This document shows positions 11,711-55,226 of a DNA stretch of 55,858 bases, piece after piece. The position numbers were made by a program, and so were the translations under genes. Source of the stretch: a virus (lineage: Duplodnaviria; Heunggongvirae; Uroviricota; Caudoviricetes); IMG/VR virus record IMGVR_UViG_2660237930_000002. One strand, 5' to 3'. How positions within the stretch are numbered: position 1 is the stretch's first letter; each line of letters starts with the position of its first letter. Below the pieces are notes generated by a model. It searched no databases. It worked only from the letters and a program-made list of their open reading frames with translations, and was not told the origin of the DNA.

Positions 11711-13288
11711 ATGACGGAAAACATTCATAAGCATCGCATCCTCATTCTGGACTTCGGTTCCCAGTATACTCAACTGGTTGCGCGCCGCGTGCGTGAACTG
11801 GGGGTTTACTGCGAACTGTGGGCGTGGGATGTGACAGAAGCACAAATTCGTGACTTCAATCCAAGCGGCATTATTCTTTCCGGCGGCCCGGAAAGTACTA
11901 CTGAAGAAAACAGCCCGCGTGCGCCGCAGTATGTCTTTGAAGCAGGCGTACCGGTATTCGGCGTTTGCTATGGTATGCAGACCATGGCGATGCAGTTGGG
12001 CGGTCACGTTGAGGCTTCTAATGAACGTGAATTTGGCTACGCGCAGGTTGAAGTCGTAAACGACAGCGCACTGGTTCGCGGTATCGAAGATGCGCTGACC
12101 GCAGATGGTAAACCGCTGCTGGACGTCTGGATGAGCCACGGCGATAAAGTTACCGCTATCCCGTCCGACTTCGTCACCGTAGCCAGCACCGAAAGCTGCC
12201 CGTTTGCCATCATGGCCAACGAAGAAAAACGCTTCTATGGCGTACAGTTCCACCCGGAAGTGACTCACACCCGCCAGGGTATGCGCATGCTGGAGCGTTT
12301 TGTGCGTGATATCTGCCAGTGTGAAGCCCTGTGGACGCCAGCGAAAATTATCGACGACGCTGTAGCCCGCATCCGCGAGCAAGTGGGCGACGATAAAGTC
12401 ATCCTCGGCCTCTCTGGTGGCGTGGATTCCTCCGTTACCGCAATGCTGTTGCACCGCGCTATCGGTAAAAACCTGACTTGCGTATTCGTCGACAACGGCC
12501 TGCTGCGTCTCAACGAAGCAGAGCAGGTTCTGGATATGTTTGGCGATCACTTTGGTCTGAATATTGTTCACGTACCGGCAGAAGATCGCTTCTTGTCAGC
12601 GCTGGCTGGCGAAAATGATCCGGAAGCAAAACGTAAAATCATCGGGCGCGTTTTCGTTGAAGTATTCGATGAAGAAGCGCTGAAACTGGAAGACGTGAAG
12701 TGGCTGGCGCAGGGCACCATCTACCCTGACGTTATCGAATCTGCTGCTTCTGCAACCGGTAAAGCACACGTCATCAAATCTCACCACAACGTGGGTGGCC
12801 TGCCGAAAGAGATGAAGATGGGCCTGGTTGAACCGCTGAAAGAGCTGTTCAAAGACGAAGTGCGTAAGATTGGTCTGGAGCTGGGCCTACCGTATGACAT
12901 GTTGTACCGTCACCCGTTCCCGGGACCAGGCCTTGGCGTTCGTGTTCTGGGAGAAGTGAAGAAAGAGTATTGTGACCTGCTGCGCCGTGCTGACGCCATC
13001 TTCATTGAAGAACTGCGTAAAGCGGACCTGTACGACAAAGTCAGCCAGGCGTTCACCGTCTTCCTGCCAGTACGTTCCGTTGGCGTAATGGGCGATGGTC
13101 GTAAGTATGACTGGGTTGTCTCTCTGCGTGCTGTCGAAACCATCGACTTTATGACCGCACACTGGGCACATCTGCCGTACGATTTCCTCGGTCGCGTTTC
13201 CAACCGCATTATCAATGAAGTGAACGGTATTTCCCGCGTGGTGTATGACATCAGCGGCAAGCCACCAGCGACTATTGAGTGGGAATGA
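11711..13288 (+). CDS. guaA: GMP synthase (glutamine-hydrolysing), intact 525 aa
   Basis: Full-length ORF with N-terminal glutamine amidotransferase and C-terminal ATP-pyrophosphatase (SGGVDSSV) regions; ends ...ATIEWE with stop inside the att core. Confidence 0.97.
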
Positions 13289-13290
13289 TT
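13276..13290. repeat. attL core (TGAGTGGGAATGATT), overlaps the last codons and stop of guaA
   Basis: Identical 15-mer recurs at 55212-55226. Confidence 0.8.
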
Positions 13291-13335
13291 AACAGCTAAC
13301 TCATAGCAAGTCATTCCTATTCAGATACTAACTCA

Positions 13336-13368
13336 ACCCTCTGTTTTTACAGAGGGTTTTTGTTTTTA
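13336..13368 (+). terminator. Rho-independent terminator on the phage side of attL, serving guaA in the lysogen
   Basis: aaccctctg-ttttt-acagagggtt followed by T-run; near-copy of the hairpin at 55253-55281. Confidence 0.7.
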
Positions 13369-13423
13369 TGTATTCATTTCTATTCACTCTACACCATATT
13401 TTTCGGCGGTACAGGTGACGGTA

Positions 13424-13438
13424 TTACCTTAAAGGTAT
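13424..13438. promoter_or_regulatory. Near-consensus operator (TTACC-ttaaa-GGTAT) upstream of integrase
   Basis: One mismatch to the TTACC-N5-GGTAA palindrome found elsewhere in the prophage. Confidence 0.4.
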
Positions 13439-13480
13439 ACTCTCATACCGTCATGAAAATGGTTTCTATACGGGTGAATT

Positions 13481-52978: not shown

Positions 52979-53065
52979 CCTCAGTATTGCTCATAACACA
53001 GTTAAGTTGTATTAGATCAGACCTGATCTGACAATTACCGGCTATTTATAAAGGTATCTGTCAGA

Positions 53066-53461
53066 TTACATCTGGCTTAAGTTTTTCTCATCCCAGATGT
53101 GCTTTCCATCAAGTAACGTTTCCATCGGCGTTCGGCCACTGCACATTTTTCCCTGATGGGTTCGCTCATTATTATAGTGAACCCGCCATTCATCAAGAAC
53201 CGATTGTAATGCTTCAAGATCATCATATAACTTTTTGCGGAACGTCACCTGATAAAACTCGTTCAGTATCGTTTTATGGAACTGCTCGCAGATACTATTG
53301 GTCTTAGATGACATTGCTTTCGTTTTCGTATGCTCAATATCATTTATCGCCAGATAAAGCTGGTAATCATGCTGCTCCACTTTACCGCAATCTCTTGGTG
53401 TATTGAGAGGCGGGTTATAAAATAAATACTGATACCATGAGGGCGGATCAATCGTGGTCAT
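53066..53461 (-). pseudogene. Transposase remnant (C-terminal part of a DDE/rve integrase-core transposase, IS481/IS3-like)
   Basis: ...NSICEQFHKTILNEF...WRVHYNNERTHQGKMCSGRTPMETL matches the C-terminal end of rve-domain transposases; no N-terminal HTH or full catalytic core. Confidence 0.6.
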
Positions 53462-53476
53462 AGTATCAGGTCATTC

Positions 53477-54991
53477 TCATGGGTTTATTGCGTCCCTGAA
53501 GATGACGTCGCTGACCATCTCTCCTCCAAGAAAATCGATCAACATATTCGAGTTTTCAAGGTCTTCTCTGGTCAATGCCCCGATTGCTTGTCCAACTACT
53601 ACCTCCCAAGGTTTTTTACACTCAACAATAGCACAGACGAGTTGGCGGATTTTCTTGATCTTCTTGTGACGCAATCGGTCGTTCGATTCCATTAGTTTTG
53701 CAATCAACGCTATGTCGGAGTGTGTTTGATTATCCTCAACCCATTTTTTGGCTGCGTCTACAAATTCCACCCATGTAACATTCATTACTGCAAGGCATGA
53801 ATCAGTCAAAAGAACATTTTCGATAGCGTAGCATCGTAAGCGATAGCGTTTAAGAGGTAGGCGATGTTCAAGCGACTCGTTGATTACACCATCGCCATCA
53901 CGAAGGGAAAAGGCGATTGGATTGTCATAGAGTGTACTAAGGAGGTCTACGCAAAAATCCTCAAGTTGACTCTGTTGATCTACGCTACCTGCTAGTACGG
54001 GAAAGATTTTTATTCGACCCTGTGATGTTCTGGCCGCTTGTTGCCAGACTCGTTCGTCGTCCTCTCCTTCCAAAATTAATGCAGCGTCTTCGCTAAGAGA
54101 AAGCGATAGGGGGTGCCCGAAGAATGGTGCAATCTTTCGAAGTTCATCGCTGGCCGGTATCAATGAGATTTCATTCACTGCAAAGCTCTTCGTGCCGATT
54201 GATACATATGGGGAGGCGGCAAGAGAACAGACGAGCGGGGAACTATGGGTGGATAAGCATATGGCAATACTGTTCGCGTGTGTTCTAAATTCGTCGAGCA
54301 TACTGATTATCAGCTTGCCCAGTCTAGCTTGGAGGTCGGGGTGCAGATGTACATCAGGCTCATCGAGGAGGAGTACGTTGAATTTCTCCGGATCTATTGT
54401 GTCGAAGAAATAGATGATTTCCGCGGCTAATGCAACCGCTTCCGATTCACCGCTACTGATTTGGGCCGGATCAATAATCTGACCATCTACAAGTGATCGA
54501 AACTCATAATCGACATTACCCATCTCGAGCGAAATGTTAGTGAGAAGCTGATTAATTTTACTTAATCGGTCTGTCTGAAAGTTTCGCGTTAGATCAGTTC
54601 GAATTTCCGGAGTATTGGCAAGTCGACGTAAGTAAAGCGTCTCGGCCTCGCGAAATAGCATAGCCGATGCAGCTTTGAAGTTGCTTGCCTGATTAACTGC
54701 CCGAGTGTGCCTCAGCCATTCGGGGTTGTCGCTCATATTTGTGAGGACGGTGCCATCACGCTTGAACGATCCTGCTCGCTCTGGACTTACATACCGGACA
54801 TAAAATTGCTGCTTGTTCTGGCTGATTGTTTGTTCGATATCACGAAGGAAACGACTTTTTCCCGCACCGTTTCGGCCCATAATTATGTTGATGTTGTTTA
54901 AGCCGTAAAGTCGGCCAATTTGGCTAGATAACTCGCTTACTTTCAAGATTGTAACTCCATTTTTTGTTGCCACATACGATATCAAATACAC
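53477..54991 (-). CDS. OLD-family-like ABC ATPase with C-terminal Toprim-like domain (anti-phage defence candidate)
   Basis: Walker A GRNGAGKS, ABC signature-like SSGESE, Walker B LLLDEPDVHLHP, then ILEGEDDERVW and RDGDG (Toprim-like E and DxD); probable GTG start. Confidence 0.6.
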   Translation of the reverse strand: MYLISYVATKNGVTILKVSELSSQIGRLYGLNNINIIMGRNGAGKSRFLRDIEQTISQNKQQFYVRYVSPERAGSFKRDGTVLTNMSDNPEWLRHTRAVNQASNFKAASAMLFREAETLYLRRLANTPEIRTDLTRNFQTDRLSKINQLLTNISLEMGNVDYEFRSLVDGQIIDPAQISSGESEAVALAAEIIYFFDTIDPEKFNVLLLDEPDVHLHPDLQARLGKLIISMLDEFRTHANSIAICLSTHSSPLVCSLAASPYVSIGTKSFAVNEISLIPASDELRKIAPFFGHPLSLSLSEDAALILEGEDDERVWQQAARTSQGRIKIFPVLAGSVDQQSQLEDFCVDLLSTLYDNPIAFSLRDGDGVINESLEHRLPLKRYRLRCYAIENVLLTDSCLAVMNVTWVEFVDAAKKWVEDNQTHSDIALIAKLMESNDRLRHKKIKKIRQLVCAIVECKKPWEVVVGQAIGALTREDLENSNMLIDFLGGEMVSDVIFRDAINP

Positions 54992-55211
54992 TAACTGAAT
55001 AGGTGCGTTGATGCCTCATTTTGTTCACATCTATGTTGAAATTAGTGATGTGACCGAGCTAAGGACTCTATTAGGAGTAGAGCGGCCATATTGTTCGTCT
55101 GAACAGCCTGTAGACAGCTCTATTATTGAGACATGGTATTTTTCGTGGTATCTGCTAAGTGGTTTGTTTCAATGCATTGATTTATTTATATTTTATTTTC
55201 TCATTGATAGC

Positions 55212-55226
55212 TGAGTGGGAATGATT
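55212..55226. repeat. attR core (TGAGTGGGAATGATT)
   Basis: Identical to 13276-13290. Confidence 0.8.

Follow-up and report, generated by a model that had tools for sequence, protein, structure and literature searches.

Cis-mobilizable elements (CIMEs) and their accretion at a shared att site are known from ICESt1/ICESt3 of Streptococcus thermophilus. The 3′ end of guaA is the integration target of the Uetakevirus phages epsilon15, phiV10 and vB_EcoP_ZX5, together with TL-2011b, phiv142-3, HEMP4 and PAS61. For ZX5, the attP/attB core ATTGAGTGGGAATGATT at guaA has been proven by PCR and Sanger sequencing, and the guaA site and the same 17-mer core are also cited for phiV10 and epsilon15 (PMC9782041), documenting the attachment site that a preliminary description of the DNA analyzed here had named for epsilon15-type phages. 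The same gene hosts GIsul2, a guaA-specific genomic island with attL, attLR and attR sites whose integrase recombines with several att variants and mobilises an integrase-less CR2-sul2 unit via the three att sites (PMC9376610), and the PIMEs, a related family of guaA-integrating mobilizable elements with immune systems reported in their accessory regions (bioRxiv 10.64898/2026.01.12.698999). In this work we analyze a 55,858-nt stretch of DNA (hereafter, the window) in which, we conclude with high confidence, two different mobile elements, a prophage and an islet, form a tandem array in one such attachment site, with three att-type sites. All the kinds of element involved are already known.

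An intact guaA (GMP synthase) occupies positions 11711-13288 of the plus strand, according to the list of open reading frames and the PGAP annotation of the near-identical genome CU532-9, with its TGA stop at 13286-13288. Its last five codons, ATT GAG TGG GAA TGA, lie inside the attL core ATTGAGTGGGAATGATT (13274-13290, plus strand), a B-O-P′ site that shares 17-bp identity with the phage attP and includes the 15-bp sequence TGAGTGGGAATGATT. As the preliminary description reported, this 15-mer is repeated at 13276-13290, overlapping the guaA stop, and at 55212-55226; these are its only two copies in the window, both on the plus strand, no others were found there at up to two mismatches, and none of 100 shuffled controls contained two matches. 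In a window of 56 kb, an exact direct repeat of 15 bp is not unusual (nine distant repeats of at least 15 bp are present, and about one in shuffles), and the att repeat is significant because of its position and its identity with the published att core, not its length. Some of the other pairs, 40080/55627 for example, look fortuitous. The right-hand copy forms part of the outer attR (55210-55226, plus strand; GC followed by TGAGTGGGAATGATT), an islet-O-B′ site identical in islet-only genomes, beyond which the native flank (55251-55858) comprises the guaA terminator (55251-55278, plus strand) and yfgI (55319-55858, minus strand). Direct joining of guaA to the flank from 55227 onwards in prophage-free relatives was a test set beforehand, and 4568 of 5426 complete E. 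coli genomes contain this empty site as one contiguous sequence; the integrase-guaA junction of the epsilon15/phiV10-like phage type occurs in 569 of the 5426. A third, partial copy of the core, invisible to the two-mismatch repeat search, is located at 51893-51903 (ATTGAGTGGGA, then GTAGGA).

The element that begins at attL is an ordinary epsilon15/phiV10-like (Uetakevirus) prophage in the published attachment site, as first surmised. Its DNA is ~98% identical to that of ZX5, which is classified as Uetakevirus, and of TL-2011b, HEMP4 and PAS61; this identity extends over most of the genome, in a common gene order, and the packaging/virion module shows ~98% identity to ZX5, phiV10 and HEMP4. 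The relatives also share the integrase type, the 17-bp core at guaA and the P and P′ arms with their GGTGACGGTAT sites. The tailspike/anti-repressor region is mosaic, being uncovered by ZX5 and partly covered by other relatives, and the prophage lacks an O-acetyltransferase gene of the kind found in phiV10 and TL-2011b. The tyrosine integrase gene (13481-14731, plus strand) starts 190 bp inside attL, agreeing with its initial placement just inside the left end; its product, with an N-terminal arm-binding domain, matches NCBIfam PRK09692 and the Pfam families Arm-DNA-bind_3, Phage_int_M and Phage_integrase, and the R...HxxR...H...Y motifs are present in its translation (VRKGE, HDMRRT, LAHE, AVY). 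An 82-aa candidate excisionase or AlpA-like HTH protein (15978-16226, minus strand) matches PHROG 66, 'excisionase and transcriptional regulator' (E 2e-16), and PHROGs and PGAP define an immunity region at 18616-19585 with a repressor (18616-19200, minus strand) and a Cro-like regulator (19355-19585, plus strand). The packaging and virion module (25688-44987, plus strand; PHROGs, PGAP, ARAGORN) encodes the small (TerS, 25688-26362) and large (TerL, 26359-27834) terminases, a portal (29223-30902) followed by a protease, the major capsid protein (31902-32894) followed by cement and gp10 'staple' proteins, and large internal and tail proteins up to 44987, all on the plus strand, with a tRNA-Arg(TCT) predicted by ARAGORN on the minus strand (28498-28574). 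The late accessory and lysis region (46605-51782; PHROGs, PGAP) contains an anti-repressor (46605-47330, minus strand), a tailspike (48084-49907, plus strand), two holins, a GH19 endolysin (50674-51303) and an Rz-like DUF2514 gene (51300-51782).

The P′ arm (13291-13480, plus strand) is near-identical, with few substitutions, to the ZX5 attP flank. It contains a replacement guaA terminator (13335-13358, then a run of Ts) with a stem almost copied from the native terminator, and a candidate arm-type Int site, GGTGACGGTAT (13414-13424), with an inverted partial copy, ATACCGTC (13445-13452); the phage end re-creates the IEWE-stop codons, as had been proposed. The 110-bp P arm (51783-51892, plus strand) holds a candidate arm-type pair, GGTGACGGTAT-ATAAAA-CGGTAC, at 51811-51833, in a position conserved in at least four other phages, with GACGGTAT starting 82 bp before GAGTGGGA. 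Conserved position and repetition suggest that these motifs are arm-type sites. The circular, virion-derived ZX5 genome reads Rz, 110-bp P arm, ATTGAGTGGGAATGATT, P′ arm and int, and the TL-2011b prophage record passes from Rz through att directly into yfgI. In every phage record homology ends at window position 51903. The true right end of the phage lies 3.3 kb before the outer repeat at 55212, and the phage proper spans ~38.6 kb (13274-51909), not 41.95 kb. The proposal of a prophage bounded by the 15-bp repeat holds for the left end, at guaA, but the right end has to be moved from 55226 to 51909: the P arm stops at 51892, the hybrid core follows at 51893-51909, and the repeat pair encloses a separate 3.3-kb islet as well as the phage genes.

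The hybrid attR recognized by junction comparison (P-O-islet, 51893-51909, plus strand; ATTGAGTGGGA followed by GTAGGA) is identical to attP over 11 of 17 bp and sets the prophage apart from its Uetakevirus relatives, because its bacterial partner was an islet-modified site. Its GAG TAG again spells E-stop, showing that this site formerly joined the islet itself to guaA. The same 17-mer lies directly 3′ of guaA in phage-free genomes and in Kluyvera. At least four different phage P arms are joined to this same guaA-proximal junction, and a phage at the distal site of the islet was found in none of the 5426 complete E. coli genomes.

The islet, islet A (51904-55211), is an independent unit of 3.3 kb, separate from the phage, with no integrase and a GC content of about 0.42-0.46. 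It borders exactly at GAGTGGGA on both sides and comprises a terminator (51950-51977), genes for a membrane and receiver-domain protein (52202-52978), an IS481-family transposase fragment (53066-53461) and a stand-alone ABC-type ATPase with a Toprim/DUF4435-like C-terminus (53477-54946), all three on the minus strand, and a GIsul2-type arm pair, CATGGTATTTTTCGTGGTATC (55132-55152), 81 bp before the core. Its left end is not significantly similar to the phage P′ arm and bears only a short resemblance to the GIsul2 attLR (GTAGGACTGGCT vs GTGACGGGCACTGGCT). Islet A is 100% identical in 28 E. coli genomes, with guaA annotated under the match in ~22 and a phage between them in 6. A Kluyvera genome carries it at the same core with 96.9% identity, next to a guaA that is only 85.8% identical and an unrelated right flank. 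It appears in none of 50,697 phage records and is absent from true plasmids, where the only full-length match is a 4.9-Mb record that is evidently a chromosome.

By its motifs, the islet A ATPase appears to be OLD/PARIS-like with a Toprim-like tail, and it is a candidate defence gene. Walker A, the ABC signature (SSGE), Walker B/D-loop and H-loop are invariant in 17 relatives; PDB profile matches include the retron Ec83 ATPase, AriA, an OLD nuclease and GajA, and PADLOC matches PDC-M01A, AriA and AriAB. The invariant C-terminal motifs EGEDDE, RDGD and CYxIEN align with the corresponding motifs of a genuine DUF4435 protein, with the ATPase falling under every curated family threshold (DUF4435, 15 bits vs a cut-off of 27). 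Motifs and profiles liken it to the ABC-ATPases of the OLD family, PARIS (AriA-AriB), Gabija (GajA) and retrons (PtuA); unlike those defence proteins, it is a single 489-aa polypeptide, no partner gene is conserved across 43 loci, and its anti-phage activity is putative.

Islet A is of the GIsul2/PIME type of guaA island, with which it shares the guaA target and the 8-bp core GAGTGGGA, and the region reproduces the three-att tandem layout of GIsul2. In structure it corresponds to the CR2-sul2 unit: both lack an integrase, have a left site in which GAGTGGGA is followed by GT, and have right ends in which a CATGGTAT arm pair precedes the core by 81-82 bp. A tandem motif, [C/T]ATGGTAT, is found 81-82 bp before GAGTGGGA in islet A, in a second islet (islet B) with unrelated cargo and the same end architecture, in the guaA island of E. 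coli ET151, in the GIsul2 internal attLR and in IMG/VR attP sites; at this position the phage has GACGGTAT...CGGTAC. The ET151 island integrase is 86.9% identical to the GIsul2 integrase on pAB3 and 53% to the phage integrase. PIMEs are reported to carry immune systems, and islet A carries a defence-like ATPase, but it lacks the GIsul2/PIME core genes (int, alpA, rep, trb, resG) as well as CR2 and sul2. The integrase-bearing partner in this array is a phage, with an integrase of another lineage (53% identical) and different arm sites, and the mobility of islet A is putative, whereas the CR2-sul2 unit is mobilised by the GIsul2 integrase. The arrangement also resembles that of CIMEs, in that an att-flanked element without recombination genes forms a tandem with one that bears an integrase and came in at one of its att sites, giving three att sites; it differs in that a phage rather than an ICE came in, and that the phage integrase is probably not cognate to islet A.

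These junctions can be accounted for by a simple history. The guaA site was very probably occupied by the integrase-less islet before the phage arrived, an order we infer by parsimony. The arm-binding tyrosine integrase would then have recombined the 17-bp attP core ATTGAGTGGGAATGATT with the guaA 3′ end, at the guaA-proximal junction of the islet, inserting a complete-looking temperate podophage (13274-51909) as a 38.6-kb circle. At this junction the core is reduced to its first 11 bp, so the overlap region in which crossover takes place would lie inside ATTGAGTGGGA. The products would be attL (13274), the hybrid attR (51893) and the outer islet junction (55210), and guaA stays intact because the P′ arm supplies its last codons, its stop and a look-alike terminator.

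Taking the whole interval between the 15-bp repeats (13276/55212) as one 41.95-kb prophage, with the ATPase and receiver genes as phage morons between the lysis genes and attP, has some appeal: both copies are perfect and outermost, the sequences outside them, once joined, give the common empty site, defence genes near att are common in temperate phages, and IMG/VR prophage calls run across the phage-islet junction. We nevertheless regard it as extremely unlikely. All sequenced phages of the group, ZX5 included, pass from Rz through the 110-bp P arm to the core, and that P arm with an 11-bp core remnant is present at 51783-51903; islet A stands alone beside guaA in ~22 E. coli genomes and Kluyvera, is in no phage record and has arm motifs of GIsul2 rather than phage type. 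Neither IMG/VR nor a metagenome collection contains the composite attP junction that such a phage would form (islet right end-core-P′ arm, TTGATAGCTGAGTGGGAATGATTAACAGC), and no evidence for co-excision of islet A with the phage was found. The phage-record search, the islet-only genomes and the junction table already contradict this reading. It is only slightly less improbable that the islet is ordinary variable DNA that spread between strains when the flanking guaA and yfgI genes recombined homologously; the E. coli flanks are conserved enough and the 28 copies nearly identical, but both ends fall exactly at GAGTGGGA, the guaA stop is re-created by the islet's own codons (GAG TAG), a terminator of its own comes with the islet, as does a GIsul2-type arm pair spaced at the canonical 81 bp, the Kluyvera copy uses the same core next to an unrelated right flank and a guaA whose divergence exceeds that of the islet by 11 points, and the second islet, with unrelated cargo, has the same end architecture.

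The order of events could also be reversed, with the phage entering the native site first, a GIsul2-type integrase later placing the islet into its attR, and islet-only genomes representing cured lysogens. The final structure is identical for either order, and the GIsul2 integrase accepts several att variants (PMC9376610). This order is nonetheless quite unlikely, given that a 100%-identical islet is found beside at least four different phages and, more often, beside none: several islet insertions or cures would be needed, against one acquisition and several phage integrations if the islet came first. A separate question is whether the prophage is a cryptic, non-inducible remnant, which we consider unlikely. 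In favour of a remnant, annotation flags several genes of the early region as partial or frameshifted (PGAP marks a few as pseudogenes in the near-identical prophage of CU532-9), the window has an extra frameshift at 25052-25058, and identity between the hybrid attR and attP is limited to 11 of 17 bp. Against this, the affected genes are small accessory ORFs, the prophage is ~98% identical to phages isolated as virions, and PGAP and PHROGs find every essential module in place at full length, from int, candidate xis, repressor/cro and replication genes to terminase, portal, capsid, tail, tailspike and lysis genes.

On the islet-first history, the prophage is predicted to be inducible and to use the hybrid attR. 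The 15-bp pair at 13276 and 55212 is not expected to serve in excision, because its right copy has no adjoining phage P arm; Int and the candidate Xis are instead predicted to act on 13274 and 51893. If this prediction is true, excision would restore a perfect attP, and in the chromosome guaA would be left joined to the islet.

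The 15-mer TGAGTGGGAATGATT occurs exactly twice in the window, at 13276-13290 and 55212-55226, both times on the plus strand, and no additional copy is found there at up to two mismatches. As the preliminary description had reported, the left copy overlaps the stop codon of guaA (ORF 11711-13288), and the gene for the phage tyrosine integrase (int, 13481-14731) lies just inside it, its start 190 bp further in. Exact distant repeats of at least 15 bp number nine in the window against about one in shuffled sequences, and a 15-bp repeat by itself is unremarkable in 56 kb; the weight of this one comes from its location and from what it matches. 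An empty-site query, composed of the last 212 bases up to 13290 and the 260 bases from 55227 onward, is contiguous and annotated as guaA/yfgI in 4568 of 5426 complete Escherichia coli genomes, at up to 99.4% identity, and in the split cases listed both query pieces overlap exactly at the 15-bp core (query positions 198-212). The element is therefore an insertion at the guaA attachment site, as had been claimed. The core common to attP and the guaA 3' end extends to 17 bp (ATTGAGTGGGAATGATT, 13274-13290 in the window), and its distance of about 190 bp from int agrees with the text of PMC9782041 and with the sequence of Escherichia phage vB_EcoP_ZX5. Both attP and attB of ZX5 contain attgagtgggaatgatt at the guaA 3' end, as determined by PCR and Sanger sequencing, and an identical core has been stated for phiV10 and epsilon15 (PMC9782041); TL-2011b has likewise been reported as inserted in guaA (PMC3293862). 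The junction between this integrase and guaA is present in 569 of the 5426 genomes. This part of the earlier finding is correct and already known.

The assignment of the prophage to the epsilon15/phiV10 type is borne out by matches to the Escherichia phages ZX5, TL-2011b, HEMP4 and PAS61, which cover 80-84% of 13276-38000 at about 98% identity and continue over 38000-51903, and the structural half has further matches in phiV10 and the O157 typing phages. ZX5, whose taxonomy line gives Uetakevirus, covers 84% of 13276-38000 at 98.1% identity and 42% of 38000-55300 at 97.9%; the corresponding coverages for HEMP4 are 82% and 62%. Against a genus criterion of approximately 70% identity times coverage, genome-wide, similarity to Uetakevirus members amounts to roughly 0.7-0.8 of the 38.6-kb phage part, by simple arithmetic as opposed to a VIRIDIC-type run, and on this sequence comparison the prophage would rank as a Uetakevirus temperate podophage at genus level. 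The full Uetakevirus virion and lysis gene set is present and in order, as judged from PHROGs and from the PGAP annotation of CU532-9, a RefSeq E. coli O4:H5 genome that is 99.98% identical over 13076-55858. Its early genes comprise the integrase, a candidate excisionase (15978-16226), Bet/exonuclease, repressor and Cro, and replication genes; these are accompanied by packaging and virion genes (small and large terminase, portal, protease, capsid, cement, gp10 staple and large internal proteins) and by late and lysis genes (anti-repressor, tailspike, two holins, GH19 endolysin and Rz). The prophage also contains a tRNA-Arg gene (anticodon TCT; 28498-28574, minus strand), which is placed between its terminase and portal genes, is oriented against the late genes and is annotated in O157 typing phages 9 and 10 too. 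A substitution cluster with a one-base insertion relative to CU532-9 at 25052-25058 shortens an ASCH-domain ORF to 24848-25087; the remaining differences in 42.8 kb are only four SNPs (23145, 28980, 30153 and 31702).

The preliminary description had also placed the right end of the prophage at the repeat at 55212, with the pair of repeats bracketing all phage genes. That right end does not hold, and the pair encloses more than phage genes: the match of every phage record stops at 51903, and the 15-bp copy at 55212 is the junction of a 3.3-kb islet situated inside the pair. In circular ZX5, Rz is followed by a 110-bp arm, the 17-bp core, the P' arm (phage DNA to the right of the core) and int, and the prophage record of TL-2011b passes from this arm and core directly into yfgI. 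In the window, the arm (51783-51892) leads into ATTGAGTGGGA/GTAGGA, a third att site that retains the first 11 bp of the core and at which GAG TAG again constitutes a Glu-stop in the guaA frame. Since this Glu-stop is re-created at the 51893 site, the DNA to its right must once have sat directly against guaA. Other genomes confirm this. The DNA in question, 3308 bp at 51904-55211 and hereafter islet A, is 100% identical in 28 complete E. coli genomes, and in about 22 of these the start of the match falls on annotated guaA; strain GW-AmxH19, for example, displays in order guaA...ATTGAGTGGGAGTAGGA, the islet, ...CATTGATAGCTGAGTGGGAATGATT and yfgI. In the other six carriers the islet is preceded on its left by a lysis cassette of the epsilon15-like kind; strains with this arrangement include CU532-9, GN02350, KC-Dl-1, EC5654 and P4. 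All six share one hybrid junction, but their P arms (phage DNA to the left of the core) represent at least four different sequences and their lysis-protein accessions differ.

Other arrangements were considered for this locus. The islet might be cargo of the phage, but it is absent from every phage record and stands alone in other genomes, and we reject this reading; a composite attP junction of phage plus islet gave no exact-pattern hits in IMG/VR and a metagenome collection, an absence that is weak evidence with exact matching. The phage might instead have integrated at the distal att site of the islet, but the synthetic junction representing that event occurs in none of the 5426 genomes, and this possibility was likewise rejected. 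As read from the sequence, the locus is an array of guaA, attL (13274-13290), the 38.6-kb phage, a hybrid attR (51893-51909), the 3.3-kb islet, an outer attR (55210-55226) and yfgI, and the two repeats described initially are the outermost sites of this two-element array. The right junction nearest the phage retains 11 of the 17 bp of the core (51893-51903), and no full core stands at both prophage ends; because this incompleteness stems from integration into an islet-modified site, we do not count it against membership in the guaA att system. If the outermost perfect repeat is used as the boundary, the prophage comes out 3.3 kb too long and a defence-like gene is wrongly credited to it. The hybrid phage-islet junction was also observed in five IMG/VR viral contigs (L053-L057), and prophage predictions there therefore overrun the real phage end into islet A.

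Phage attP and the islet-modified site have recombined repeatedly even though they share only ATTGAGTGGGA, so the overlap region must be contained in these 11 bp, a location that would fit the 8-bp GAGTGGGA core given for GIsul2 (PMC9376610). The site used, in at least four independent integrations, is the one with the native guaA side, whereas none is seen at the site that pairs a 15-bp identity with the native yfgI side. These natural variants amount to a free mapping experiment that puts strand exchange in the left 11 bp, and their sequences indicate that the guaA-side half-site is probably the one that matters. Excision would be expected between 13274 and 51893, restoring a perfect attP (...CCGTAAATAATTGAGTGGGAATGATTAACAGC...) and leaving guaA fused to the islet with the scar ATTGAGTGGGAGTAGGA. 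No phage P arm adjoins the outer repeat.

The integrase contains the Pfam domains Arm-DNA-bind_3 (E 4e-20), Phage_int_M and Phage_integrase, and its translation displays the R...HxxR...H...Y motifs as VRKGE, HDMRRT, LAHE and AVY, with catalytic positions assigned by inspection; by its arm-binding, core-binding and catalytic domains it ranks as a tyrosine recombinase of the lambda/P4-like kind. Position and repetition point to GGTGACGGTAT as a candidate arm-type site, at 51811 in the P arm and at 13414 in the P' arm, with an inverted partial copy recognized by sequence at 13445 in the P' arm; the position of the candidate site is kept in five other phages. A 9-bp inverted repeat, CACTCAATT ... 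AATTGAGTG (51864-51872 and 51892-51900, 19 bp apart), connects the P arm with the left edge of the core and may serve as a site of the core type or for an accessory protein. A separate terminator follows each of the three junctions (13335-13358, 51950-51977 and 55251-55278). The stem of the one in the P' arm (AACCCTCTGTTTTTACAGAGGGTT, 13335-13358) is almost that of the native guaA terminator (AACCCTCTGTTACTACAGAGGGTT, 55251-55278), the stretches between core and terminator being unrelated in the two, and a guaA 3' region seems to be present in the phage as a diverged copy.

Islet A encodes three ORFs, all on the minus strand, and no recombinase, with att sites at both ends. The products are a receiver-domain protein of 258 aa that is predicted to span the membrane twice, an IS481-family transposase fragment and a 489-aa ABC-type ATPase. 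The ATPase matches the Pfam families AAA_15 (53 bits; cut-off 32) and AAA_21 (45.6 bits; cut-off 27), and its 43 relatives are found in very diverse Proteobacteria. Neighbour clustering in these 43 loci yielded no conserved partner gene, so the receiver-domain gene, whose product has no PADLOC match, is not a conserved partner. Across 17 relatives there is no variation in the nucleotide-binding motifs or in the C-terminal motifs EGEDDE, RDGD and CYxIEN. A profile of the relatives, compared with solved structures, matched the retron Ec83 ATPase, AriA, an OLD nuclease and GajA, and PADLOC returned weak PDC-M01A and AriA/AriAB matches; a DUF4435 match (E 0.021, 15 bits) fell below the cut-off of 27, and hhalign against a bona fide DUF4435 protein aligned EG..D, D.D and Y.IEN at low probability. 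Taken together, we infer that the ATPase is a candidate stand-alone defence protein of the OLD/PARIS-like type. Relatives with about 80% amino acid identity are located just downstream of guaA in the Halomonadaceae Vreelandella glaciei (L008, 9992-13245) and Carnimonas sp. (L018, 10001-16622). In Carnimonas, a separate PARIS-like pair of an AAA_15/AAA_21 ATPase gene and a DUF4435 gene stands between the relative and guaA, and ParDE and Fic genes are found nearby in Vreelandella. There, guaA ends in ATTGAGTGGGAGTGA; a search near the ATPase for a second GAGTGGGA junction gave nothing convincing in either genome.

A Kluyvera genome contains islet A at the same core, with 96.9% identity for the islet versus 85.8% for guaA and an unrelated right flank, so the islet has crossed from one genus to another as one unit and inserted site-specifically, though without an integrase of its own. 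In both E. coli and Kluyvera it is flanked by GAGTGGGA, the core as given in PMC9376610. A search of a plasmid collection matched only the IS481 fragment, besides one 4.9-Mb record that is evidently a chromosome. Circular islet A would have the junction TTGATAGCTGAGTGGGAGTAGGACTGGC, for which exact-pattern searches of IMG/VR and the metagenome collection returned no hits, an absence that is weak evidence. The P' arm of the phage and the left end of the islet resemble each other no more than shuffled sequences do. A second integrase-less islet of about 3.8 kb, islet B, carries two DUF262-domain genes and is found at this guaA-yfgI site in 79 of the 5426 genomes (for instance E. coli 19SZHZ713Rt, L058 5184-9020, and ET350, L059 9196-13035). 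Its left junction reads ATTGAGTGGGA/GTGAGG, with the Glu-stop re-created as GAG TGA.

The same site in E. coli ET151 holds a 16-kb island of the GIsul2/PIME type (L068, 12546-28573), the integrase of which adjoins guaA. Its cargo consists of EexN, a trbL remnant, an ABC-three-component system, ComF-family genes and a serine protease, and ISKpn26 is inserted in it. The ET151 integrase is 86.9% identical to that of the Acinetobacter baumannii plasmid pAB3, where the gene string int-alpA-repAC-trbJKL-ars-resG-ISVsa3-sul2 constitutes GIsul2; it is 75% identical to integrases of IMG/VR contigs found by searching with the end motif of the islets, and only 53% identical to the phage integrase. A search for named phages with a GIsul2-type integrase gave only weak partial DNA matches (about 71-76%) to integrases of epsilon15-like and related Klebsiella/Enterobacter phages. 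A tandem [C/T]ATGGTAT...TGGTA motif, beginning 81-82 bp ahead of GAGTGGGA, ties these elements together; it is an arm feature derived in this analysis and not a published GIsul2/PIME criterion. It is found at the right ends of islet A in E. coli and Kluyvera (the arm pair at 55132-55152 in the window, with GIsul2-type motif and spacing), in the ET151 island, at the internal attLR of GIsul2, in the IMG/VR viral attP sites next to the 75%-identical integrases and in islet B, which ends on the right in the same CATGGTAT arm pair plus a CATTGAT box ahead of the core. Epsilon15-like phages, in contrast, have GACGGTAT-ATAAAA-CGGTAC exactly where the GIsul2-type motif sits. To the right of the core, attLR of GIsul2 reads GTGACGGGCACTGGCT, and islet A is similar (GTAGGACTGGCT).

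GIsul2 and the PIMEs, guaA-integrating mobilizable elements that are described as related to GIsul2 and as carrying immune systems (bioRxiv 10.64898/2026.01.12.698999), have their own integrase, AlpA and mobilisation/replication core genes, whereas islet A has none of these. With three ORFs and no core genes, it is therefore classed as a derivative or integrase-less module rather than as a GIsul2 or PIME element. Its closest model is the CR2-sul2 unit, which is integrase-less, bounded by attLR and attR, and has been shown to be excised and integrated by the GIsul2 integrase (PMC9376610). By its architecture islet A is the structural counterpart of that unit, and it can be described as a putative integrase-less, att-bounded module of the CR2-sul2-unit-like or CIME-like kind. 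Its passage between genera to an identical core would give indirect support to movement driven in trans by a cognate integrase.

The host DNA to the left of guaA has peculiarities of its own. Relative to CU532-9, about 16 short tandem duplications are scattered over 1300-11500; they measure 11-66 bp, are mostly perfect and two-copy, and include those at 1303-1356, 3014-3090, 3348-3406, 3520-3608, 5211-5269, 8326-8366, 8440-8494, 8522-8553, 8630-8711, 8756-8811, 10075-10112, 10853-11007, 11232-11294, 11366-11390 and 11448-11490. They frameshift guaB (ORFs 9945-11000, 11042-11425 and 11391-11642), xseA (8684-9852, minus strand) and an 8-kb adhesin gene (1-8278). No complete E. coli genome among the 5426 has the guaB duplications, the best match being 92.7% in three pieces, and guaA, the prophage and the islet are free of such duplications. 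The duplications look artefactual, whether from assembly or from the way the sequence was generated, unless they reflect local mutation of a very unusual kind. Nothing in CU532-9 corresponds to bases 1-12 of the window (ATGTCCCTGAAC), and a single base is absent at position 19. An ORF consequently opens at the very first position of the window, which is odd for a natural excerpt. The motif TGGGGGCATATGCC and its variants recur through the adhesin gene (1012, 2644, 3628-3650, 5360-5382, 6218 and 7073), presumably reflecting the repeated Ig-like domains of the adhesin and explaining most of the other repeats of at least 15 bp.

For this phage group the prophage and its att site are textbook-level, and the finding as originally written adds nothing new: prophage, integrase and att site, guaA as a target of GIsul2 and PIMEs, and three-att tandem arrays are all known in kind. 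The new elements are modest: the 3.3-kb islet and the second islet are recognized as GIsul2-type modules that lack an integrase and have defence-like cargo, and to these are added the hybrid attR and the pattern of site choice. A literature search for guaA/yfgI as a named hotspot gave nothing useful. A more general scheme, which we put forward as speculation and consider unlikely as a whole, would see islets A and B as minimal integrase-less, att-bounded defence cassettes that cross genera by means of a borrowed GIsul2/PIME-type integrase, with phages docking on the guaA-proximal side and arrays occasionally resolving through the outer sites. If this were true, each cassette would carry one defence function, working like integron cassettes or the CR2-sul2 unit, and epsilon15-like phages, which have the same core but different arm sites, could through such resolution pick up or transduce a defence cassette. 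The guaA-yfgI junction of E. coli has at least four occupants, namely epsilon15-like phages, GIsul2/PIME-type islands and two integrase-less islets, and its combination of one core with two families of arm sites makes it useful for studying the competition between phages and mobilizable islands for an attachment site.
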